Origin: an uncultured Candidatus Saccharibacteria bacterium
GTDB taxonomy: Bacteria; Patescibacteriota; Minisyncoccia; Phycocordibacterales; UBA5272
Assembly: GCA_964544935.1 (NCBI GenBank)
Contig: CAZJDZ010000003.1
Span: 24,568-88,567 of the forward strand
Length of the DNA: 64,000 nt
Direction: 5' to 3'
Under the pieces are notes generated by a model that had not been told where the DNA came from, ran no database searches, and saw only the letters and a program-made list of their open reading frames with translations. Position numbers and translations under genes: made by a program. Positions 5,130 through 55,395 of this stretch are shown here, piece after piece (positions within the stretch are counted from its first letter, which is position 1; each line of letters begins with the position of its first letter).

Positions 5130-6728
5130 TTACTCACCCCTAGTGGCTGTTCTTTTGAGATGTTGCCGTAAGTATTCAGTAGTAGACCCAATTTTTTTAC
5201 CAGGATTAAGAATCATTAACGGATCCCACAATTCTTTTATTTTTTTAAAAAGAGTGAGCGTTGCATCACTGTAGACATATCCAATAAATGGTGCTCGAGC
5301 AAGTCCTTCGCCGCCTGTTGCACTTATCCCCCCATCATAATCTTTAATGATAGAAAAAAGTTTTTTTGCGTAGAGAAAAATATCTTCTTCATATGTTTTT
5401 GCTTGAGGGTCAAAAAGCATAGTTACCCCAACATGCCCGCTCCCAATGTTGCCAGTAAGGGTATACATCTTTCCAAGAGAATTAAGATATTTTTGTGTAT
5501 CCTGTAAGAATGTAGGAAGCTGATGTAGTGTCACAATCATCCCGTTACCTACAGAAATAGGAAGCAGTGTGTCGTGTGTATACATAGAAAACAGTGAAAG
5601 AAGAAACTCGCTATCAATAATTCTTTCAAGTGTTTTTCGAGAATCAATTGTCTGAAGAAAATGTTCATCTAGTGGAAGTGCGTTTCTAAAAGTTCGCACA
5701 GTGTGGTGAAGTTTTTCTTTGTCTTGTGCCATATGTGTTACAAGTAGTGTGTAAGGAACTTCTGGAAACAGGGGAACAACACCTTTGTAATACCGTTCAG
5801 CAAGTTCCATAAATGTTCCATCGTACATGAAGATATGCTCACTCTTGTGGTGTTTTGCAATTTCAATGTACGAAGGTAAAAGTTCTCTTCTTGTAACAGG
5901 GATACAGGTTGTAATGATGTGTGGTTTGTGAGGACTGATACGAAATGTTATTGATGTAAGTATTGCAAATGTTCCTTCAGACCCAGTGAGTTGATCAATA
6001 AGTTGTCGCGGTCCAATAGAAGTATTCCAAAGGTTGTACCCACTACCATCATCAAAAGAAATCGGTTTAGAAGCACGTAAAAGAGGGGATTCTTTTGTAA
6101 GAAGTGGAAAAACCGTTTGATAAATACCAAGGAGTCTTCCGCTCGGAGTGATACCATCTGCAATGGTATGCTCTTCTCCATTATCCACAACAACAGTTAA
6201 CCCTTCGATCCATTCACGAATAGTTCCGTGAGAAAAAGATCCAGTTGAAGAACTTTTTGTTGCAATCACCGCACCAACAGTCGCTCCTTTGTCTACACCA
6301 AGTAGTAATGGAATATCAAAATGCCAGTTGTGCAACTTTTCTAAAAGTTCACCAACTGTTGTTCCAGCATCTACAGTAACAGTATTTTCCATCATGTTGA
6401 CGTTACGGATTTTACTAAAATATCTACTCATTTCAAGAACGATACCCTCGCTCAGAGCACCTCCGTTTCTTCCAGAGCCTGATCCTCGTACAGTGATAGG
6501 CATTCTATATTCTCGAGCAAAACTAAGGACATGTTTGATGTCAGTGGCATTTTTAGGGTAAATAACTGCTTGGGGTGAAATTATATAGGGCGATCCATCA
6601 TCGCTGTACTTCGAAAGAGTCGTCGAAGAACAGTCAATTTCTCCTGCAATAATTTTTGCAAGATCGGTAAAAAGAGGGGGAACACGAGTAATAAAATCAG
6701 ATGCCATGCTCATAAAGACTTTTTCCAT
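5130..6728 (-). CDS. FAD-binding oxidoreductase (FAD-linked oxidase, GlcD/D-lactate dehydrogenase-like)
   Basis: PCMH-type FAD-binding block PITVRGSGSGRNGGALSEGIVLEM. 532 aa with a C-terminal FAD-oxidase-like domain. Confidence 0.65.
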   Translation of the reverse strand: MEKVFMSMASDFITRVPPLFTDLAKIIAGEIDCSSTTLSKYSDDGSPYIISPQAVIYPKNATDIKHVLSFAREYRMPITVRGSGSGRNGGALSEGIVLEMSRYFSKIRNVNMMENTVTVDAGTTVGELLEKLHNWHFDIPLLLGVDKGATVGAVIATKSSSTGSFSHGTIREWIEGLTVVVDNGEEHTIADGITPSGRLLGIYQTVFPLLTKESPLLRASKPISFDDGSGYNLWNTSIGPRQLIDQLTGSEGTFAILTSITFRISPHKPHIITTCIPVTRRELLPSYIEIAKHHKSEHIFMYDGTFMELAERYYKGVVPLFPEVPYTLLVTHMAQDKEKLHHTVRTFRNALPLDEHFLQTIDSRKTLERIIDSEFLLSLFSMYTHDTLLPISVGNGMIVTLHQLPTFLQDTQKYLNSLGKMYTLTGNIGSGHVGVTMLFDPQAKTYEEDIFLYAKKLFSIIKDYDGGISATGGEGLARAPFIGYVYSDATLTLFKKIKELWDPLMILNPGKKIGSTTEYLRQHLKRTATRGE

Positions 6729-26386: not shown

Positions 26387-27818
26387 AAAATTCTATATCA
26401 CAACAACACTTCCATACGTGAACTCAGACCCTCACGTTGGTTTTGCAATGGAAATTATTCGTGCGGATGTTATTGCTCGCTATAAACGCTCACTAGGATT
26501 TGATGTATTTTTTAATACAGGAACTGATGAGCATGGGGCCAAGATTCATGAGAATGCAGTAAAGCAGGGGACAGATGTACAGGTATATGTTGATGGGTAT
26601 GCAGAGAAGTTTAAAGAGTTAACAAAAGTTCTTAACATAGAAGATGTGCATTTCATTCGTACAACAGATGAGAAGCATGTTGCTGCCGCAAAGGAGATGT
26701 GGAAGCGCTGCTCCGATAACGGATATATTTATAAGAAAACATACCAAGCTAAATACTGCGTTGGGTGTGAACTTAACAAGACCGATAGCGAGCTTGTTGA
26801 CGGTAAATGTCCAATACATCCTAATCGTGATATTGAACTTATTGATGAAGAAAACTACTTCTTCAAGTTTTCAGCATTTCAAAAACCTCTTCTTGATTTT
26901 TATAATGCAAATCCAGATTTTGTTATTCCTGATTTTCGTTTCAATGAAATCAGAAGCTTTGTAGAACGTGGGCTTGAAGATTTTTCTATCTCACGCCTCA
27001 AGTCTAAAATGCCGTGGGGGGTGGATGTTCCAAATGACCCTGACCATGTTATGTACGTATGGTTTGATGCGCTCACGAGCTATATCTCAACACTTGGATG
27101 GGGGACAGATGACAAGGATTTTGATTTTTGGAAAGATGGAACTCCGGTTCAGTACTGCGGCAAGGACAATCTTCGTCAACAGTCTGCAATGTGGCAGGCG
27201 ATGCTCATGGCAGCAGGACTACCAAATTCTAAACATATTATTATTGACGGATTCATTACTTCCGGTGGTCAGAAGATGAGTAAGTCTGTCGGGAATGTAA
27301 TTTCACCATTTGATGTCATCGATGCATTCAAAGATGTAACGGATTATCCAGAAGAAGTACTTCGCTTTGTTTTGCTTCATGAAATCTCCTCGTTTGAAGA
27401 TGGTGATATTACTATGGAAAGTATCAAGACTGCGTATACTGCATACCTTCAGAATGGAATCGGGAATCTTACGAATCGTATTATGAAGATGGCAATAACA
27501 GCGCAGACTACCGCAGAACAAATGCAGACCATCGCGGAAAGGGATACAAACCTTGAACAGTTTGATGTTAAAAAAAGCATAGAACATCTTATGACAAAAG
27601 TTGCAACGCTTGATAAAAAAATTCAAACAGAGGAACCTTTTAAAGTAATTAAAATTGATGAAGAAAAAGGTAAGAAAATAATCAAAGAGTTACTTGAGGA
27701 ACTATATGGGGTTGCGCTCAAGTTACAAATTTGCCTTCCTAAAACTTCTGCAAAAATCCTCGAGTGTATCCGTGAAAATAAGATGCCAGAAAAACCTCTC
27801 TTTAATCGCTTACCATAA
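26370..27818 (+). CDS. metG: methionine--tRNA ligase
   Basis: YITTTLPYVNSDPHVGFAMEIIRADVIARYKR...GTDEHGAKI (HIGH region) and GGQKMSKSVGN (KMSKS). Start set at MLEENKK (ATG 26370), overlapping the upstream gene end by 17 nt. Confidence 0.9.
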   Translation: MLEENKKFYITTTLPYVNSDPHVGFAMEIIRADVIARYKRSLGFDVFFNTGTDEHGAKIHENAVKQGTDVQVYVDGYAEKFKELTKVLNIEDVHFIRTTDEKHVAAAKEMWKRCSDNGYIYKKTYQAKYCVGCELNKTDSELVDGKCPIHPNRDIELIDEENYFFKFSAFQKPLLDFYNANPDFVIPDFRFNEIRSFVERGLEDFSISRLKSKMPWGVDVPNDPDHVMYVWFDALTSYISTLGWGTDDKDFDFWKDGTPVQYCGKDNLRQQSAMWQAMLMAAGLPNSKHIIIDGFITSGGQKMSKSVGNVISPFDVIDAFKDVTDYPEEVLRFVLLHEISSFEDGDITMESIKTAYTAYLQNGIGNLTNRIMKMAITAQTTAEQMQTIAERDTNLEQFDVKKSIEHLMTKVATLDKKIQTEEPFKVIKIDEEKGKKIIKELLEELYGVALKLQICLPKTSAKILECIRENKMPEKPLFNRLP

Positions 27819-32154: not shown

Positions 32155-32330
32155 GAAGAAATGCGGAACAGACGCAGACTGACGCGGAAGGGATCCAGTT
32201 TCGGTACAAGCTCGTTACTTATATATAAAATTAGTTCGTAACAAAATACATTATTAAGTTAAAATAAATACGATCACGTTTGCTTCCGCGAAGTTCCGCG
32301 TGAAGTCCGCGCTGATCCACGACTCTATGA
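32155..32330. repeat. ssb-rpsR intergenic region carrying inverted copies of the GC-rich short repeat family (GCGGAAC.GACGC.G / TTCCGCG)
   Basis: GCGGAACAGACGCAGACTGACGCGGAAGG at about 32163-32191. Inverted partner CTTCCGCGAAGTTCCGCGTGAAGTCCGCG at about 32282-32312. An AT-rich core lies between them. Confidence 0.5.
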
Positions 32331-34984: not shown

Positions 34985-35407
34985 TTGCTGAAGGCTAATG
35001 GATTGTTTCTGCGTAAGTCTGCGGTAGAGCGTTGTGATATACTTTTAAGAATGAAATATATTATTAGTTCAGTTTTATATCTCGTCATACTTCTTTGCCT
35101 TTCTGTATTTGTATTTGATCCAGCTCATCTATATTATGAGATCCCTTGGCTTGATGTTCCTATGCATATCATGGGAGGGTTTGGGGTAGTTTCTCTTGTT
35201 CTTTCCATTGCTTCATACAATGGAAAAAAACTTTCACTACGAACTGCGTTAGTTGCATTCTTTATTGTTGCAATTGGTTGGGAGTTGTATGAACTTGGAC
35301 ATGATTTTGTTGACCAGAGAGAGTGGGGTGGGTGGAGCGATACATTTTCAGATATTATTAATGGCACACTTGGTGCATCTGTTGCGTACTACTTTCTTAA
35401 AAAATAA
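34985..35407 (+). CDS. hypothetical small membrane protein
   Basis: 3-4 TM helices. The likely true start is MKYIISS (about 35051). Confidence 0.35.
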   Translation: MLKANGLFLRKSAVERCDILLRMKYIISSVLYLVILLCLSVFVFDPAHLYYEIPWLDVPMHIMGGFGVVSLVLSIASYNGKKLSLRTALVAFFIVAIGWELYELGHDFVDQREWGGWSDTFSDIINGTLGASVAYYFLKK

Positions 35408-42583: not shown

Positions 42584-42589
42584 TTGATG

Positions 42590-42978
42590 TGGAGGTGGGC
42601 GGAATCGAACCGCCGTGTAACAAGGTATGAGGCATGCGTCTACTGTGTGTAGTTTGCTTAAAGATGTTCACATTCATTATCAAGAGCAAACGAAAGCAAT
42701 GAATGTAGAGCATGTTTATTTCGGGTATGTTGCTATGCAACAACATACCCTACGTCTGCTGTTATATTGCCGTTACTTTTTCCGCAGATACGAAAGAGTA
42801 CGACACCAGATCGGCCTAAATTTAGGCGAATGCTGGAACTAGACCAAACGCGTATGGCGATGGAATAGCCTTGCCAGTTGTTTTTGCAACATGGTTACCT
42901 GAAAGGGCACGAGTTCTCAGGTGATCTCGACACAGCACATACAACATATTCTTATTATCGAATCCATAGAACACCCCC
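42590..42978 (-). ncRNA. ssrA: tmRNA (ssrA), one-piece
   Basis: Minus strand 5' GGGGGUGUUCUAUGGAUUCGAU... (compare GGGGCUGAUUCUGGAUUCGAC in E. coli). 3' end ...GGCGGUUCGAUUCCGCCCACCUCCA: T-arm plus acceptor complementary to the 5' GGGGGUG. Internal tag-like reading frame ...GCAAAAACAACTGGC...GCATTCGCCTAA (AKTTGKAIPSPYAFGLVPAFA*). smpB lies 90 nt upstream. Confidence 0.8.
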
Positions 42979-46307: not shown

Positions 46308-46408
46308 ACAATCAATTATATTTTGGTGCATTTACATGGACTAAGAATCTATTGTCCAGCCGTGCATACTGACCGTATTAAAACTGCTCTCAAAGAAAAT
46401 GTTCTAAG

Positions 46409-46481
46409 TGCGCCCACCTGGACTCGAACCAGGGACCAGTCGTGTATAAGACGACGGCTCTACCAACTGAGCTATGGGCGC
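46409..46481 (-). tRNA. tRNA-Ile with anticodon UAU
   Basis: Minus strand GCGCCCA-TA-GCTC-AGTTGGTA-GAGC-C-GTCGT-CTTATAC-ACGAC-TGGTC-CCTGG-TTCGAGT-CCAGG-TGGGCGC-A. Full cloverleaf. Anticodon loop CU-UAU-AC. 73 nt. CCA not encoded. Confidence 0.8.
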
Positions 46482-46594: not shown

Positions 46595-49249
46595 TTACTC
46601 CATGTGCACTTTTTCTTTTTCGAGGATCAGTTCAAGTAACTCTTGATGTCTAGAAAGCGTTGGATCAGATTCAATAAGTGAGCGTGCCTCATGACGAGCT
46701 ATTTCAACAAGTTTCGGGTTCTTAATTGCTTCCATGGCGAGGTCACTGATTCCCCACTGCTTGCCATCATATAACGTTCCAATTCCTCGTGTAAGCATAT
46801 CTTGCTCCGCAAGCTCGAAGCCGTTCTTGGCTTTTACAAGTGCAGTAAGGCGAGTGTATGAGGTTTCACCTGAACTCTCGGTGAAAAGGTAACAGTATGA
46901 TTGATGTTCTGCACGACCAACACGACCACGTAGCTGGTGCAATTGTGCAAGACCGAATCTGTCCGCATGCTCGATAATAATAACCGTTGCGTTTGGGACG
47001 TTTACCCCAACTTCAACTACAGAGGTAGCTACTAGAATATCAGATTTTTTGTTTAAGAAATCTTCCATCACTTCTTCTTTCTCATCTCTTTTCATTTTAC
47101 TATGGAGAATATCAACTATAAATTCTGGGAAAACGACGTCAGCTAAGCGAGTTGCTTCTTCTTTGACACTCTTGAGCATCCTCTTTTGCTTTTCTTCTTC
47201 ATCTTGCTCATCGATACGTGGACAGATAACATACACCTGACGACCAGCTTGTAATTCCTTGCGGACATGTTCATACATCTCTTGCCGCTTACTTGATTTT
47301 ACAATTTCAGTAATAATCTTTTTACGCTCTTTTGGCACACTATCAATTACAGTAAGTTCAAGATCTCCAAACAAGGTGAGGGCAAGTGTACGAGGGATAG
47401 GGGTGGCTGTCATCGACAGGAGATGCGGAACTGACGCGGACGTACGCGGAACTGACGCAGAAGAGTCCCGAGCTGTATCATAAATAACACGTTCTATTTC
47501 TAGCTCAGAGTGGCCAAAATTAACAAGAAGCCCAAGAAGATATTCAGATCCTTTGAGATAATTCCATAGCTGTTTTTTTTCTTGAGCACCCAAGAAAGGA
47601 AGCGCTTTTAATTCTATAATAACTTTATTTTCTATAATAAAATCAGGTTGATATACACCAACTTTTTTATTATTGTACAATACGGGGATTTGTTGTTCTT
47701 GTGAAAAATCGAGACCTACTTTTTTTAGTTCAATTGCGAGCGCTTTTTGGTAAATAATTTCTTTATGACCAGTACCAAGTTCTTGTTTTACAGCAAAGAT
47801 TGCTTCACGGATTTTGTAGGTCAGCTCTTCGTAGATAAGTTTTGAAGAAGGTGTTGTTTGTATTTCTTCCGCGTCAGTTCCGCCCCGTTCTGCGTTCCTT
47901 CCGCGTGCCAACGCTTTGCGTTGGCGGACACCGAAGCGATGCTGTTCATCGATGATGATGAGAGCAAGATTTTCAAAAAGTACAGATTTTTGAATGAGCG
48001 CATGAGTCCCAATAACAATAGAGACAGCACCTTCCTTTAGCCATTTGATAAGTTGTGCACGAGACACATCTGTGGGTTCGTTGTTTTGTTTGCTTGGGAA
48101 TTTCTTGCAACCACTTCCAGTAAGAAGTCCTATTTCAACAGAAGTACCTTTGAAGTATTCTATAAAACTTTCAAAGTGTTGCTTGGCAAGAATCTCAGTT
48201 GGTGCCATGTACGCAACTTGTAATCGTTTACCATGCTCTGTTGTTCGATTATGAAGCACAGCATATGCGATAGTTGCTGCAACGAATGTTTTACCACTTC
48301 CTACATCACCTTCAAGGAGTCTCCCCATAGGATCATTTCTCCCTATGTCTTCTAGAATTGCATTGATTGCATGTAATTGTGCATCAGTTGGTGTGAAAGG
48401 GAATGAGTTAATGAACGCATTGAGTTCTTTTTTTGGAATAGTGATAGGGTAGGAAAGTGAATGTTTTGCCTCTTCTTTTTCTCTATATTGCTTCAGTTGC
48501 ATGTAAAAAATTTCTTCAAACGCAAAACGTTTACGGGCAGCTATGGTAAGTGATTCATTTTTTGGAAAATGAATATACATGAGTGCATCTTTGAGAATAG
48601 GGAGGTGAAGTTTTTGTAGTATTGCTTCTGGTATTGGGTCTACTACATCACCAAGAACGCCGCCTGCAATGGCTTTTTTAAGAAGTGTGTAAATGTACAG
48701 AGATGAAACACCTTTTGTTTCTGGATACACCGGAGTAAGAAATGACACATCACGAATTTTTCCGCGTCCCTCCGCGTCAGTTCCGTGGTCGTCCGCACTC
48801 ACAGCAAAAAGAGAGTCCGCATGCTCTGGAAGCTCTTGTAGCTTCTCTATCATCGGATTAGAGAGAAAGAGTCCACGGGAATCTTCCTGAACTGTCCCGC
48901 TAATTTTTACCTTGGTGCCGTCAGGGTACATCTTGCCGATGTAGGCTTGGTTAAACCAGATACACCTGATTGTTCCAGTACTATCAACAACACGAGCTTC
49001 TGTCATAGGGACATGTCCTTTGAAACTTCTTCGTACGGAAACTTTTTCCATGATGCCATACATAGTCACTGACTGACCTTTTTCTATATGACTCACATGA
49101 GCCTCTTCGCGCATATCTGCATAGCGAGTAGGGAAGTGGTAGAGGAGATCACGGATGGTTATTAGATTGAGACGCGAAAGACCTGCTACGTGGTCTTTGT
49201 TGATTTGAGACAGTAATGTGATTGGGCTGTCTAAGCGTATAGTTTTCAT
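46595..49249 (-). CDS. recG: ATP-dependent DNA helicase RecG carrying an in-frame GxxExxY-module insertion
   Basis: N-terminal wedge/OB domain. Walker A GDVGSGKT. DEQHRFGV (motif II) and MTATPIPRTLA (motif III) are separated by about 160 aa instead of the usual 15-20. Helicase C-terminal domain. 884 aa. Confidence 0.9.
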   Translation of the reverse strand: MKTIRLDSPITLLSQINKDHVAGLSRLNLITIRDLLYHFPTRYADMREEAHVSHIEKGQSVTMYGIMEKVSVRRSFKGHVPMTEARVVDSTGTIRCIWFNQAYIGKMYPDGTKVKISGTVQEDSRGLFLSNPMIEKLQELPEHADSLFAVSADDHGTDAEGRGKIRDVSFLTPVYPETKGVSSLYIYTLLKKAIAGGVLGDVVDPIPEAILQKLHLPILKDALMYIHFPKNESLTIAARKRFAFEEIFYMQLKQYREKEEAKHSLSYPITIPKKELNAFINSFPFTPTDAQLHAINAILEDIGRNDPMGRLLEGDVGSGKTFVAATIAYAVLHNRTTEHGKRLQVAYMAPTEILAKQHFESFIEYFKGTSVEIGLLTGSGCKKFPSKQNNEPTDVSRAQLIKWLKEGAVSIVIGTHALIQKSVLFENLALIIIDEQHRFGVRQRKALARGRNAERGGTDAEEIQTTPSSKLIYEELTYKIREAIFAVKQELGTGHKEIIYQKALAIELKKVGLDFSQEQQIPVLYNNKKVGVYQPDFIIENKVIIELKALPFLGAQEKKQLWNYLKGSEYLLGLLVNFGHSELEIERVIYDTARDSSASVPRTSASVPHLLSMTATPIPRTLALTLFGDLELTVIDSVPKERKKIITEIVKSSKRQEMYEHVRKELQAGRQVYVICPRIDEQDEEEKQKRMLKSVKEEATRLADVVFPEFIVDILHSKMKRDEKEEVMEDFLNKKSDILVATSVVEVGVNVPNATVIIIEHADRFGLAQLHQLRGRVGRAEHQSYCYLFTESSGETSYTRLTALVKAKNGFELAEQDMLTRGIGTLYDGKQWGISDLAMEAIKNPKLVEIARHEARSLIESDPTLSRHQELLELILEKEKVHME
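47411..47460. repeat. right inverted-repeat flank of the recG insertion (two tandem copies of GCGGAACTGACGC.G)
   Basis: GGAGATGCGGAACTGACGCGGACGTACGCGGAACTGACGCAGAAGAG. Encodes ...SASVPRTSASVP... in recG. Confidence 0.55.
47435..47902 (-). mobile_element. in-frame insertion within recG encoding a GxxExxY (PD-(D/E)XK-like) module, flanked by inverted GC-rich short repeats
   Basis: The insert encodes ...LTYKIREAIFAVKQELGTGHKEIIYQKALAIELKK...PVLYNNKKVGVYQPDFIIENKVIIELKAL...LLGLLVNFG... (the GxxExxY family hallmark G-HK-E-II-Y). Flanks: CCGCGTCAGTTCCGC (47873-47887, + strand) and the inverted GCGGAACTGACGCGG / GCGGAACTGACGCAG (47422-47458). Confidence 0.45.
47865..47935. repeat. left inverted-repeat flank of the recG insertion, plus an internal perfect palindrome
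   Basis: CTTCCGCGTCAGTTCCGCCCCGTTCTGCGTTCCTTCCGCGTGCCAACGCTTTGCGTTGGCGG. Contains the 8-bp palindrome GCCAACGC-TTTG-GCGTTGGC inside coding sequence. Confidence 0.55.
48758..48792. repeat. solo copy of the CCGCGTCAGTTCCG repeat inside the 5' part of recG (encodes ...GTDAEGRG...)
   Basis: TTCCGCGTCCCTCCGCGTCAGTTCCGTGGTCG. The same 14-mer as at 47873, in frame. Confidence 0.5.
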
Positions 49250-49282: not shown

Positions 49283-49633
49283 TTATTCAAATTTTTTAAT
49301 AAGAGATGTTATCATTTTCATAACTTCAGTTATGTCCTCTTGAGTAGTTGAGTACTCTTCATTTGTTAGATATCCAAGTTGTTGTGCAATATATAGTTGT
49401 GTTTCCATTTCAGCACCAGAACCACTTGCTATCGTGAGAAAATGTTTAAAATCTTTTTTTGTGGTTCTCTTGCTGCCTTCTGCGATGTTTGAAGGGAGAG
49501 AAACACCAGCTCTCCTTAGTTGATTGGTTAAGCCAAATTTTTCATGCTCAGGGAATGTGTTTGTTATCTTATATATTTTTATAGATAGATCAACAGACTT
49601 TTGCCAGACGATAAGATTTTTATAATGATGCAT
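49283..49633 (-). CDS. four-helix-bundle protein (TIGR02436; former '23S rRNA intervening-sequence protein' family)
   Basis: LIVWQKSVDLSIKIYKITNTFPEHEKFGLTNQLRRAGVSLPSNIAEGSKRTTKKDFKHFLTIASGSGAEMETQLYIAQQLGYL matches the family pattern closely (W.KA..L...IY.....FP..E.FGLTSQLRRAA.SI..NIAEG...). Confidence 0.7.
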   Translation of the reverse strand: MHHYKNLIVWQKSVDLSIKIYKITNTFPEHEKFGLTNQLRRAGVSLPSNIAEGSKRTTKKDFKHFLTIASGSGAEMETQLYIAQQLGYLTNEEYSTTQEDITEVMKMITSLIKKFE

Positions 49634-54064: not shown

Positions 54065-54160
54065 TGTCAAGCCCCCTGTAGACGCAGACCACGCAGACGT
54101 AGGCAGACCACGCAGACACAACAATACAGAATATTGCTAACTTTACGCGGAAGGAAGATT
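54065..54160. repeat. intergenic tandem/dispersed GC-rich short repeats (GACGCAGACCACGCAGAC x2; ACGCGGAAGG)
   Basis: GTAGACGCAGACCACGCAGACGTAGGCAGACCACGCAGACAC ... TTTACGCGGAAGGAAG. Related to the repeats at 32163 and 47422. Confidence 0.45.
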
Positions 54161-54285: not shown

Positions 54286-55395
54286 TTACTTCAATGCGGC
54301 GTAGGCCTTCTCAAAGAGGAAGCCCATGTCTACGTTGTGCACAAGGTAGTTATCAGCGTAGAAATCATGAGTACCATTAACACCGAAGTTATAGACCATT
54401 GTTTCCCCGTAGATACTATCAAGTGATGTTAGCTCGGTAACACTACCGTCTTTCATAATAAGAGTGTCTCCAACAGTAAGCTGTGAGACTACTATACCTT
54501 TACTTTCTTTACGTGTTCCTTCTGGATCAAGTGATTTCCATCCGTCTGGCGTCATGAATGGGTGAGTAGGGGTTACGAAGTACTTGTCGCTACCATTGAA
54601 AGCATAGAGTAGACCCTTGTACTTGATGCGGTAGGCCTTCATGACTTCTTGTGGTCCACCTGATGTCATAATTGTGTCTTCTAGAGTAACTGCTTCAATG
54701 TTCTTATATGTTCCATCTCCCATGAGTACTTGAGTACCGGCAACGAAACATCCACCTCCATATTGATCTCCAGACTCAGCTGTAACACTTTTGGTTTTCT
54801 CTGTTCCCCAAGATGTTACTTGTCCGTTATTGTAGTTACATTTTATACCATAAACCTTTGTTCCAGCATACATGTATGGTGAGTATTTACTACCAGAGCA
54901 TGCGAGTGTTCCAGTGTTCCAGTACCCAACTGTTGATGAACAAGAAGTACAGGATCCAGTATTTGACCATCTTATAATTGTTCTACCACCATATGGAACT
55001 GTAGCATCGTCTGTTGTAAGGGTGGTTACTGGAGCTGATGGAGGATTTCCAAAATAGGTACTCAGTCCTGTAGGGCAGTTTGGTGGGTCGTTCGATTTAT
55101 TTTTACAAAGACATGAGTTCTTTGCAGAGTCGTATTGTGTAGTTGCGCCGATTCCGTTTAGGTTACAGGTATCAGGGCAGTCACCACTCGTATGACTTGT
55201 AGGAGGTACACTATCACAACTTGCAGGAACAACTGATCCGGCACTGACACCAGCAACTGAATATTCTCTGAAAGAGAGTTCATGTGAAAATACAGAAGCT
55301 TTTGTTATGTAGAGTGCTGAGGATGCAAACGTAACGATGAGCAAAGAAACAATAAGCGGCCATCTTTTATTTTTTATTTTTTTAAATATGTTCAT
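54286..55395 (-). CDS. secreted Cys-rich protein with a C-terminal Hint (Hedgehog/intein-like, BIL-type) domain
   Basis: N-terminal signal/TM. Hint block A GGGCFVAGTQVLMGDGTYKNIEAVTLEDTIMT. Hint C-terminal block MVYNFGVNGTHDFYADNYLVHN. The protein ends 14 aa after the HN. Confidence 0.55.
   Translation of the reverse strand: MNIFKKIKNKRWPLIVSLLIVTFASSALYITKASVFSHELSFREYSVAGVSAGSVVPASCDSVPPTSHTSGDCPDTCNLNGIGATTQYDSAKNSCLCKNKSNDPPNCPTGLSTYFGNPPSAPVTTLTTDDATVPYGGRTIIRWSNTGSCTSCSSTVGYWNTGTLACSGSKYSPYMYAGTKVYGIKCNYNNGQVTSWGTEKTKSVTAESGDQYGGGCFVAGTQVLMGDGTYKNIEAVTLEDTIMTSGGPQEVMKAYRIKYKGLLYAFNGSDKYFVTPTHPFMTPDGWKSLDPEGTRKESKGIVVSQLTVGDTLIMKDGSVTELTSLDSIYGETMVYNFGVNGTHDFYADNYLVHNVDMGFLFEKAYAALK

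Follow-up and report, generated by a model that had tools for sequence, protein, structure and literature searches.

Why does the RecG helicase encoded at this locus carry a long extra stretch between its helicase motifs II and III, and how did the DNA that encodes it come to be there? The window, i.e., the whole 64-kb stretch of a Candidatus Saccharibacteria contig that was analyzed, contains a recG gene (Table 1) whose 884-residue product was matched by the Pfam families RecG_wedge, DEAD, Helicase_C, and RecG_dom3_C, i.e., the wedge, two RecA-like helicase domains, and C-terminal domain 3 that define a RecG. Motifs II (DEQHRFG) and III (MTATPIPRTL) are both undamaged. A first-pass annotation had claimed about 160 residues between them rather than about 16, and the excess is real: the spacing from DEQHRFG to MTATPIPR is 172 residues, compared with 19 in most insert-free relatives (n = 75). 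The relatives compared had from 99% to 63% identity to this RecG. As the same annotation had stated, the reading frame is kept through the insert, and the linkers translate to GTDAEE and SASVPRTSASVP. The GC content is 25–34% in the central module of the insert, 53–57% in the repeat arms on either side, and about 42% in the remainder of recG.

Table 1. Coordinates of the recG cassette, of related repeat arrays, and of the upstream gene in the window
Feature	Position	Strand	Details
recG host gene	46595..49249	(-)	one continuous 884-aa ORF spanning the whole cassette (ORF list)
GxxExxY / PDDEXK_3 nuclease module	47486..47827	(-)	aa 475-588, between DEAD and Helicase_C
Confidently modelled block around module	47477-47842	(-)	aa 470-591 (AlphaFold2)
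5' arm	47864..47906	(-)	~4 units (A)CGC[GA]GA, 10-11 nt period; peptide ARGRNAERGGTDAEE
3' arm	47425..47464	(-)	inverted units TC[CT]GCG; peptide SSASVPRTSASVP
Left junction hairpin HL	47907..47925	(-)	GCCAACGC-AAA-GCGTTGGC, from RQRKALA codons; outside 5' arm
Right junction hairpin HR	47407..47419	(-)	CTGTC-GAT-GACAG, LSMT codons; outside 3' arm
Single-arm array, wedge-domain loop of recG	48761..48796	(-)	GCGGAC..CGGAAC..GCGGAG..GCGGAA; peptide SADDHGTDAEGRG
Arm pair without cargo, same unit family	32163..32311	(.)	intergenic, just downstream of ssb; 5' arm 32163-32190, inverted arm 32283-32311, ~90 nt AT-rich spacer
Intergenic array, GCAGAC-type units	54075..54150	(+)	unit flavor of "type B" RecG inserts
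Two units in MetRS ORF	27502..27517	(+)	peptide TAQTTAEQ
Four-helix-bundle gene upstream of recG	49283-49633		PF05635, 23S_rRNA_IVP family, E 7e-42

The module had been read as a complete copy of the GxxExxY family, and this was borne out by full-length matches to PDDEXK_3 (PF13366; E = 9.2e-34, 116.7 bits with a cut-off of 22, profile positions 2–117 of 117) and TIGR04256 "GxxExxY" (E = 5.9e-36, 123.4 bits, cut-off 35). The family, of which the library searched contains about 10,000 representatives at 50% identity, is annotated as "function unknown" (PMC3424549). AlphaFold2 modelled the module as a confident block flanked by two low-confidence linkers, i.e., the translated arms (pLDDT < 50 at residues 451–469 for the 5' arm and 592–604 for the 3' arm), which agrees with a separately folded domain. 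The model of the insert shows a PD-(D/E)XK fold only, and fold similarity together with a QxxxY motif following ExK places it in the RecB/Cas4-like branch. Residues G25-x-x-E28-x-x-Y31, P66-D67, and E77-x-K79 are unchanged in 22 RecG inserts, and the active-site set E, D, ExK, and QxxxY is invariant among RecG inserts. With a dN/dS ratio of about 0.13 (three pairs, dS being saturated so that the ratio alone was used), these comparisons indicate an intact active site under purifying selection. A component of an anti-phage defense system was rejected as an identity for the module, because no PADLOC family matched it at E ≤ 0.01. When the window was translated in six frames and searched with the profile, no copy of the module was found besides that in recG.

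The module is enclosed by repeats that had been described as inverted copies of one 15-nt GC-rich sequence. They are indeed GC-rich, inverted, and present on both sides, but they are arrays of a 6–7 nt unit rather than a single 15-mer. Each arm has three to five units, (A)CGC[GA]GA, spaced 10–11 nt apart and inverted between the two sides, and the inner 19 nt of the 3' arm base-pair with the 5' arm, one of the pairs being G.U. The sequence GCGGAACTGACGC occurs at 47425 (+), 47446 (+), and 47871 (-), with one-mismatch copies at 48774 (-) and 32163 (+); 0.44 matches were expected in the window as against the five found, a number reached in none of 100 shuffles. Because the units are free of stop codons in all six frames, the arms always translate to hydrophilic, disordered linkers, with TQT, DAE, or RG on one side and SA or PR on the other. 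Arms belonging to one element are more alike than arms of different elements (27.1 versus 20.5, p = 6e-7), and lineages differ by compensatory changes (CTG/CAG, CAG/CTG, and GTG/CAC); GTG/CAC requires T→S and V→L replacements. The flavor of the unit also tracks the lineage of the module, being GCGGAA in type A, GCAGAC in type B, and ACACGGA or ACACGAAT outside CPR.

The closest relatives of the module, with 50–63% identity, sit not only in RecG but also in LepA, GatB, LeuRS, RtcB, DHFR, and GT1/GT2/GT4 glycosyltransferases, with further hosts being AsnB, transketolase, Wzy, and pilin-like proteins. Across CPR phyla the embedded modules are always full length, have the same kind of arms, and split a host domain, and host genes are intermingled in the module tree (this and the RecG tree below were made by neighbor joining on protein distances, and carry no support values). 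In a search of 185,579 species genomes, every one of the 27 hits with at least 52% identity was embedded in CPR genes with both junctions open, whereas hits in non-CPR phyla (38–50% identity) were stand-alone ORFs, which were also flanked by similar arms. The same anatomy is found in many host genes, with the frame open across both junctions. A phage carrier was sought by tblastn in 50,697 phage records without a match, and viral metagenome contigs (IMG/VR) gave just remote matches of 32–42% identity.

We propose, with a probability of about 0.6, that the insert is a cassette belonging to a selfish, homing-type family that resides inside ORFs and is translated through rather than spliced. The cassette would consist, in order, of a hairpin, an arm of three to five units at helical-turn spacing, a RecB/Cas4-like PD-(D/E)XK nuclease of about 120 residues, inverted units, and a second hairpin. 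The nuclease would fold apart, hanging off a surface loop between RecG helicase motifs II and III, so that the host protein remains unbroken. Spread among orthologous sites of different lineages would occur via homologous recombination of imported DNA, probably aided by the encoded nuclease, which would break or process DNA in a homing-like manner; now and then the cassette would jump to a new gene. Decay would proceed through arm-only and single-arm remnants to eventual loss. A role of the nuclease in mobility is our inference, as are its substrate and the functions of the arms and hairpins. Against such a role, a 120-residue RecB-like nuclease is not a known transposase, and most RecB/Cas4-like enzymes process ends or flaps and are not site-specific.

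Repeat units are not confined to the cassette. The window has 8 unit clusters, compared with 0.08 expected, and terminal inverted repeats with several copies per genome are the mark of a MITE/RPE-type element, which the cassette shares. A solo in-frame copy of the repeat had been noted near 48771 and is real; it is part of an in-frame insertion of about 14 residues found only in some relatives, with pLDDT < 50 over residues 143–171. The pair of units in the MetRS gene may likewise be a single-arm remnant. Arm-only or single-arm alleles also occur at the insertion sites of the cassette (L072, L066, P0085, P0038, and P0356), and a different unit type, ACACGAA, makes arm-only insertions in the same LepA loop; no units are present in empty alleles, which tells against our proposal in that a naive target would offer the nuclease none to recognize. 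Such copies, if mobile, were necessarily moved in trans, and along with the ACACGAA insertions they favor a different explanation, i.e., that the nuclease is cargo and the arms are functional, MITE-like ends that are moved by an enzyme encoded elsewhere, or by recombination or replication slippage at the repeats. Also in its favor, we know of no small RecB-like nuclease that transposes DNA. We nevertheless regard this explanation as unlikely, because the arms enclose the GxxExxY family alone, all the way from CPR to Planctomycetota and Omnitrophota, because the active site is invariant and under purifying selection, and because the flavor of the units is linked to the lineage of the module.

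The distribution of the insert among RecG proteins bears on whether it was inherited or acquired. In a tree of RecG built without the insert, the 23 insert-bearing proteins are scattered, often lying nearest to insert-free proteins with 94–97.6% identity (P0015/P0108, P0004/P0045, and P0010/P0058). Inserts in the closest host pairs are just 44–50% identical; between the RecG of the window and P0002, for example, the flanks are 92.6% identical and the inserts 46.6%. Flank identity does not track insert identity (r = 0.11). Insert types that are unrelated to each other occupy the same site in sister hosts, where the cassette takes the place of a 12-residue host linker, and empty alleles have one common canonical linker of 16 residues. 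A metagenome scan for filled recG, which served as a control set, yielded 75 empty alleles and one filled, and added no sister pairs. A possible trace of co-conversion of the flanks is that identity in their first 60 nt was 80–85%, versus about 90% elsewhere, in two filled/empty pairs only. A shared site, sporadic presence in close relatives, and a phylogeny incongruent with that of the host are the behavior of homing elements, and LepA shows the same site-sharing, sporadic pattern. These sequence comparisons show repeated, independent gain at one recG site, and by the same evidence the insert is mobile and not ancestral. The suggestion of the first-pass annotation that a mobile cassette has been tolerated in a surface loop of RecG is supported by this patchiness in near-identical hosts, by the mixing of lineages, by the unrelated host genes, and by the AlphaFold2 model; the opposite pattern, in which all orthologs carry the insert without repeats, was looked for among the relatives and not seen. 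The tree and the identity statistics, together with the linker common to empty alleles, led us to reject an ancient domain fusion followed by losses.

The same annotation had offered a domesticated nuclease domain as its alternative, i.e., an accessory domain that adds an activity to RecG, such as cutting branched DNA, and is inherited vertically with losses. In favor of this reading, RecG works on forks and junctions, the module weakly resembles T7 endonuclease I in sequence (E = 0.12), and its active site is intact and under purifying selection. Its patchy presence in hosts that are 94–98% identical, with unrelated insert types in sister hosts, makes this improbable, and repeated loss would not restore the canonical linker. 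A junction nuclease would moreover be functionally senseless in LepA, GatB, LeuRS, DHFR, and glycosyltransferases, all of which harbor the module, and this too makes domestication the weaker alternative.

Just outside each arm lies a short hairpin that includes host codons (Table 1). HR is weak in the recG of the window but stronger in other lineages, and filled alleles have CTG TCG at this position where empty alleles have TTG AGT. The mean best junction stem was 5.9 bp in filled RecG alleles versus 3.35 in 57 empty alleles, and 61% of 28 filled loci had a perfect stem of 6 bp or more, versus 7.5% of control windows (p = 9e-8). No direct copy indicating a target-site duplication was found at the junctions, where there are inverted copies of host codons instead. 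In the predicted minimum-free-energy fold of the RNA, the module is enclosed by the paired arms, and both junction hairpins form (z = -3.4, with none of 100 shuffles as good). Since RtcB is encoded by CPR genomes, this fold might suggest that the intervening sequence is removed by an RNA endonuclease acting at the arm-arm stem with ligation by RtcB; protein splicing or proteolysis would be other means. We consider removal of any kind very improbable. Each of the 23 RecG clusters, like all 27 embedded hits (obtained by searching independently of frame), stays open across the 3' junction and on into the C-terminal half of the host, which counts against removal because an open 3' junction is needed only under read-through. 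That intein-like splicing was not to be expected had been stated before and is confirmed: Pfam found no Hint or intein domain in the 884-residue protein, and the junctions vary (...ARGRNAE, ...SRKPSQT, ...SASVP|HLL, and ...SANKLP|HLL), with no conserved Cys/Ser/Thr or His-Asn. Group I and group II introns were rejected because an Rfam scan of the window at gathering thresholds gave just tmRNA and one tRNA, with no intron family, and an rRNA-type intervening sequence was rejected because the cassette is inside a protein-coding ORF that is open throughout. An artefact of assembly or binning has a negligible probability, given a 99%-identical protein cluster in NCBI plus an independent Logan assembly, and related filled alleles in JGI, ENA, NCBI, and Logan assemblies of different samples.

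Selfish elements that encode a nuclease and are known from within genes avoid killing their hosts via splicing, either of RNA (introns) or of protein (inteins). The translated-through cassette appears to represent a third route, being spliced at neither level: its repeat ends become flexible linkers because no frame encodes a stop, and the module would be a harmless extra domain. Like inteins with homing endonucleases, it is selfish, in frame in conserved regions of essential genes, nuclease encoding, and patchy at one site in close relatives, and it seems to pass through gain, decay, and loss in a cycle. Unlike inteins, it lacks a Hint domain and splice residues, apparently stays in the mature protein, has a PD-(D/E)XK nuclease rather than LAGLIDADG or HNH, and is bounded in its DNA by inverted repeat arrays. 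A homing endonuclease of the PD-(D/E)XK type, I-Ssp6803I, is encoded in a cyanobacterial tRNA group I intron; it is likewise small and mobilizes a site-specific selfish element, a role that is putative for the nuclease of the cassette, but it has a restriction-enzyme-like architecture and a self-splicing intron where the cassette has the RecB/Cas4 motif set and no intron. REP/REPIN elements with their RAYTs share with the cassette a single small gene, inverted short GC-rich repeats, and many non-autonomous, repeat-only copies. However, RAYTs are HUH/Y1 enzymes and REPs are extragenic, whereas the cassette is intragenic, translated, and encodes a PD-(D/E)XK nuclease.

The cassette also resembles Rickettsia palindromic elements (RPEs), which, according to the summary in PMC10969869, are about 150 bp long and encode no enzyme (Ogata et al., 2000, 2002). 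As described there, RPEs are also repeat-bounded selfish DNA, inserted in frame in unrelated housekeeping genes of hosts with reduced genomes, adding a peptide at places that the fold tolerates. Set against that account, the cassette differs in having a complete, conserved nuclease, arms of short units with helical spacing, and junction hairpins, and in recurring at one site in many lineages; among its forms, the arm-only derivatives are those that resemble RPEs.

At slightly under even odds, we would extend the proposal beyond recG: a GxxExxY gene with inverted arrays of 6–8 nt units may constitute a widespread, unrecognized class of autonomous mobile elements, existing in most bacteria as an intergenic stand-alone ORF, of which a CPR/Patescibacteria branch would have specialized in conserved loops of essential genes (such as recG, lepA, gatB, leuS, rtcB, and folA) by shedding its start and stop codons, so that it is translated through. 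Mobility would be the task of the nuclease, with the arms and junction hairpins as its DNA substrates. No description of this element was found in the literature on GxxExxY, PDDEXK_3, and CPR in-frame insertions, subscription-only papers lying outside that search. If the proposal is true, the GxxExxY / PDDEXK_3 family acquires a candidate function, that of a mobility nuclease, together with a DNA context that is defined. The cassette also accounts for oversized, misnamed CPR proteins (one RecG is labelled "GxxExxY protein" at both NCBI and JGI), and through it nuclease-helicase fusions and fusions of other domains can arise naturally. The filled/empty polymorphism offers a ready-made marker of gene flow in uncultivated CPR lineages; Saccharibacteria are naturally competent (PMC10187176).

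Intervening sequences in 23S and 16S rRNA, which may encode PF05635 proteins and are excised by RNase III, resemble the cassette in having an inverted-repeat stem around a small ORF at a place that tolerates extension, in being sporadic and horizontally acquired, and in being common in reduced genomes including CPR (PMC11270868). Their cargo is a four-helix bundle and is cut out, whereas the cassette carries a nuclease, is translated, and has a protein-coding host; PDDEXK_3 is absent from the ORF domains tabulated for CPR rRNA insertions (PMC11270868). The gene just upstream of recG belongs to that four-helix-bundle family, as had been claimed, but no hypervariable island unites it with the insert. 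Because it is the syntenic neighbor of recG whether a genome is filled or empty, we rejected the idea that it belongs to the cassette or to a variable island.

The recG gene of this contig is a single open reading frame encoding 884 amino acids, in which Pfam profiles detected the RecG_wedge, DEAD, Helicase_C and RecG_dom3_C domains and, between DEAD and Helicase_C, a complete PDDEXK_3 domain (amino acids 475-588, profile positions 2-117 of 117, E = 9.2e-34). The same module matched TIGR04256, "GxxExxY", in NCBIfam (E = 5.9e-36). A first-pass annotation, made from the sequence alone, had proposed such an in-frame insertion together with an enlarged spacing between helicase motifs II and III, and both were borne out, the gap from DEQHRFG to MTATPIPR being 172 residues compared with 19 in most of 75 insert-free relatives. 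The GC content was 25-34% in the module, 53-57% in the arms (the arrays of repeat units on either side of it) and about 42% in recG. No further copy of the module was found in the 64-kb window. An assembly artefact was ruled out, because a protein cluster 99% identical to the window RecG is present in NCBI and in an independent Logan assembly. Public pipelines have named some RecGs of 870-880 amino acids "GxxExxY protein" (clusters P0011 from JGI and P0015 from NCBI), the embedded module having taken over the annotation.

A whole-protein search yielded 120 close relatives from Nomurabacteria and Paceibacterota (CPR), with PF13366 present in 22 clusters (851-915 amino acids; "filled") and absent from 98 (678-761 amino acids; "empty"). 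The insertion site was identical in all insert-bearing relatives. When aligned with its orthologues, as the first-pass annotation had suggested, the insert proved to be patchy among close relatives, and a repeat-free insert common to all of them was not seen. In a tree of the flanks only (all trees were neighbour-joining, without support values) the filled RecGs were scattered, and their nearest neighbours were often empty, with flank identities of 97.6% (P0015 and empty P0108), 97.0% (P0004 and P0045), 95.9% (P0010 and P0058) and 94.2% (P0019 and P0096). In the five closest filled pairs the inserts were just 44-50% identical; for the window RecG and P0002 the flanks were 92.6% and the insert 46.6% identical, and flank identity was related to insert identity with r = 0.11. 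Inheritance with repeated loss is disfavoured, because deletions would not restore the one canonical linker (KALASKKGEVRKELPHLL) that is common to the empty alleles. Judged by these comparisons, repeated acquisition of the insert, rather than inheritance, is demonstrated. At the DNA level the cassette (module plus arms) replaces a 12-residue host linker. Synonymous codons adjacent to the junctions read CTG TCG in filled alleles and TTG AGT in their empty sisters, and the first 60 nt are 80-85% identical between them, as against about 90% elsewhere; there are thus hints, although not decisive ones, of short co-converted tracts.

An exhaustive, profile-free search with the module alone over 1.84 billion representatives returned 9,913 relatives; among the best 150 of these, 65 were embedded in larger proteins, 50 were stand-alone and 35 were tandem pairs. 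The hosts identified by Pfam were RecG, LepA, GatB, LeuRS, RtcB, DHFR and GT1, GT2 and GT4 glycosyltransferases, with asparagine synthase, transketolase, Wzy and pilin-like proteins in addition, and in every case the embedded module was full length and the host domain was split. Peptides on the N side (TQTDAD, TQTNAE, RINAD...) and on the C side (RxSAS..RxSA) matched the window type. Searching GTDB, with one genome per species, gave 27 matches of at least 52% identity, all in CPR lineages (Nomura-, Zambryski-, Staskawicz-, Jorgensen- and Yanofskybacteria, Paceibacterota and others) and all embedded, with the frame open across both junctions. The search took no account of reading frame, so the openness of the frame reflects a genuine constraint. 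Matches of 38-50% identity in Planctomycetota, Omnitrophota, Verrucomicrobiota, Elusimicrobia, Calditrichota and Prevotella were stand-alone ORFs of about 125-170 codons, most of them flanked by inverted arrays of other units (ACACGGA, ACACGAAT). LepA, with four filled clusters among about 116 empty ones and a site that always lies between PVRM and LNLIDTPGH, follows the same pattern as RecG. In the module tree, modules clustered in part by host gene, consistent with spread among orthologous sites, and host genes were also mixed: a GatB module fell within a LepA clade and RecG modules were distributed over five or more clades, implying jumps between genes.

Tandem two-module proteins (P0149, P0150, P0158 and about 32 others; 250-277 amino acids), which make up about one quarter of the best 150 relatives, are possibly covalently joined dimers of a nuclease that must otherwise dimerise. 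P0146, P0160, P0165 and P0175 carry the module and 3' arm at the extreme N-terminus, before a type IV pilin-like motif (GFTL.E); if these gene models are right, prepilin peptidase would remove the module from the mature pilin. LepA clusters P0279, P0281, P0284, P0285, P0287 and P0302 contain insertions of 30-40 residues in the PVRM-LNLIDTPGH loop that resemble arm-only elements, and their peptides (SKHE.LNKSQ and LEFRNSDLEF) back-translate to ACACGAA-type units, which also flank stand-alone modules outside CPR. At the related locus L021, a lepA that already holds an embedded module is followed directly by a stand-alone module ORF (6142-6516).

The 15-nt inverted repeat of the first-pass annotation stood in part: inverted copies are real (a 13-mer, GCGGAACTGACGC, has two copies downstream of the module and one inverted copy upstream of it), but each arm is an array of three to five copies of (A)CGC[GA]GA. 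With one-mismatch copies at 48774 and 32163, the 13-mer has five matches, against 0.44 expected. Across 28 related elements, unit spacings of 10 or 11 nt accounted for 51 of 72 in the 5' arms and for 47 of 68 in the 3' arms. A 10-nt period places successive units in successive reading frames, giving the peptides TQT, DAE and RG; inverted units translate to SA, PR and xRx, and the unit, as read from the sequences, is free of stop codons in all six frames. The inner 19 nt of the window arms pair with each other, with one G.U pair. When 5' arms were compared with reverse-complemented 3' arms, the match was closer for the partner in the same element than for 3' arms from other elements (mean match 27.1 versus 20.5, p = 6e-7). 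The inner unit pair differs between lineages, with both sides changing in concert: it is GCGGAACTGACGC/GCGTCAGTTCCGC in the window, ..CAG../..CTG.. in P0015 and ..GTG../..CAC.. in P0004, where it entails T-to-S and V-to-L replacements.

Features of the recG cassette and its surroundings in the window (nt)
Feature	Position	Remarks
recG ORF	46595-49249 (-)	
5' arm	47864-47906	window recG
3' arm	47425-47464	window recG
Left hairpin	47907-47925	GCCAACGC-AAA-GCGTTGGC; directly outside 5' arm; built of RQRKALA codons
Right hairpin	47407-47419	CTGTC-GAT-GACAG; outside 3' arm; weaker than left hairpin
Single-arm array	48761-48796	recG wedge loop; 14-residue insertion in only some relatives
Cargo-free arm pair	32163-32311	intergenic, downstream of ssb; arms ~28 nt, AT-rich spacer ~90 nt, same unit family
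Four GCAGAC units	54075-54150	intergenic run; flavour of "type B" RecG inserts (a module lineage)
Two-unit cluster	27502-27517	inside MetRS; peptide TAQTTAEQ
Unit array	35008-35023	start of small membrane-protein ORF
PF05635 gene	49283-49633 (-)	in related loci: L003 9617-9967; L004 4361-4711; L006 523-888; L007 2639-3004
tRNA-Ile (TAT)	46408-46481 (-)	immediately 3' of recG
tmRNA gene	42587-42978 (-)	predicted tag peptide ADVGYVVA
369-aa ORF	54286-55395 (-)	C-terminal part resembles Hint / bacterial intein-like domain

The minimum free energy RNA fold of 47395-47945 comprised the left hairpin, an arm-arm stem around the module and the right hairpin (z = -3.4); none of 100 shuffles folded as well. 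Statistics solidly support the left hairpin: perfect stems of 6 bp or more occurred in 61% of 28 filled loci, as against 7.5% of control windows (p = 9e-8). The right hairpin occurred in 25% of filled loci (p = 0.04). The two halves of the RecG hairpin code for native QRxAL residues and differ from empty alleles in codon choice only; stems averaged 5.9 bp in 19 filled alleles and 3.35 bp in 57 empty alleles. The LepA hairpins are palindromes of 8-12 bp consisting of host codons and an inverted copy (e.g., GTCAGGATGGTA|TACCATCCTGAC), and the inverted copy adds residues (HPDR, QVE) that are missing from empty alleles. Arms and hairpins appear to evolve as if pairing or common recognition counts. 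Candidate roles for the hairpins are a structured DNA substrate of the nuclease, a footprint left by the insertion chemistry, or an mRNA structure.

Residues invariant in 22 RecG inserts (45-80% identity) include E28 of GxxExxY, P66-D67, E77-x-K79 and Q91-x-x-x-Y95, which is the motif set of RecB/Cas4-type PD-(D/E)XK nucleases. The dN/dS ratio was 0.13-0.14 in the module, close to the 0.05-0.13 of the host flanks (dS being saturated, the ratio alone was used), pointing clearly to selection on the nuclease, which looks functional. Structure prediction of full-length RecG, another suggestion of the first-pass annotation, modelled amino acids 470-591 with fair to high confidence, and pLDDT was below 50 in the translated arms on either side (451-469 and 592-604) and in the loop 143-171, which contains the single-arm insertion. 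The model fits a separate domain on flexible tethers. Domestication of this domain as an accessory of RecG is unlikely as its origin, given the same module in other host genes, although it may have been co-opted secondarily within RecG. Removal of the cassette at the RNA or protein level is disfavoured, since the 3' junction is open in all cases and intron features are absent, as are those of inteins, in line with the initial expectation that no intein-like splicing occurs.

Alleles with arms only were found at the same RecG site. At one locus, L072, both hairpins are present together with six 5' units and three inverted units, but no module; L066, L074 and P0085 retain the 3' arm only, and P0038 resembles a P0013-type filled allele that has lost an internal segment. 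LepA has a remnant allele as well (P0356). Eight unit clusters occur in the 64-kb window, compared with 0.08 expected; among them are both arms of the cassette, the cargo-free arm pair and the arrays at 54075-54150, 27502 and 35008. The solo repeat that the first-pass annotation placed earlier in recG is also one of these, a single-arm array, and the arm pair downstream of ssb looks like a non-autonomous derivative.

The best-supported reading is a selfish cassette, tolerated because it is translated through. It would spread between orthologous sites through recombination, occasionally reach new genes, and subsequently decay. We infer both that the nuclease drives this mobility and what its substrate would be; the main rival explanation is that the arms are the mobile unit and the nuclease is their cargo. 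Among in-frame selfish DNA, the nearest known counterpart is the Rickettsia palindromic element (PMC10969869), which has no enzyme, whereas the recG cassette has its nuclease module. In behaviour the closest precedent is the intein-borne homing endonuclease, which differs in that it splices. CPR rRNA genes contain numerous insertions encoding LAGLIDADG, GIY-YIG and PF05635 proteins (PMC11270868); that study's table of rRNA-insertion domains does not include PDDEXK_3, nor does the study discuss protein-coding hosts. A survey of PD-(D/E)XK proteins lists PDDEXK_3 as of unknown function, with "multiple transfers" (PMC3424549), and we found no description of the cassette in the open-access literature on GxxExxY or PDDEXK_3. 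We rate the cassette among in-frame or homing selfish elements; a more ambitious reading would make it a distinct class of autonomous element.

Several neighbouring genes deserve mention. The PF05635 gene (23S_rRNA_IVP / four-helix-bundle, Avd-like) is a conserved upstream neighbour of recG in this clade, with or without the cassette, and overlaps the start of recG by 4 nt in L006 and L007. The UAU anticodon of the tRNA-Ile is an uncommon bacterial means of reading AUA codons. Resemblance of the 369-aa ORF to Hint domains lies in GGCFVAGTQVLMGDG ... YLVHN, and an ORF at L003 (4093-5202) gave a weak Hom_end_hint match. As for the tmRNA gene, SmpB and FtsH are encoded close by in the syntenic loci L003 and L004.
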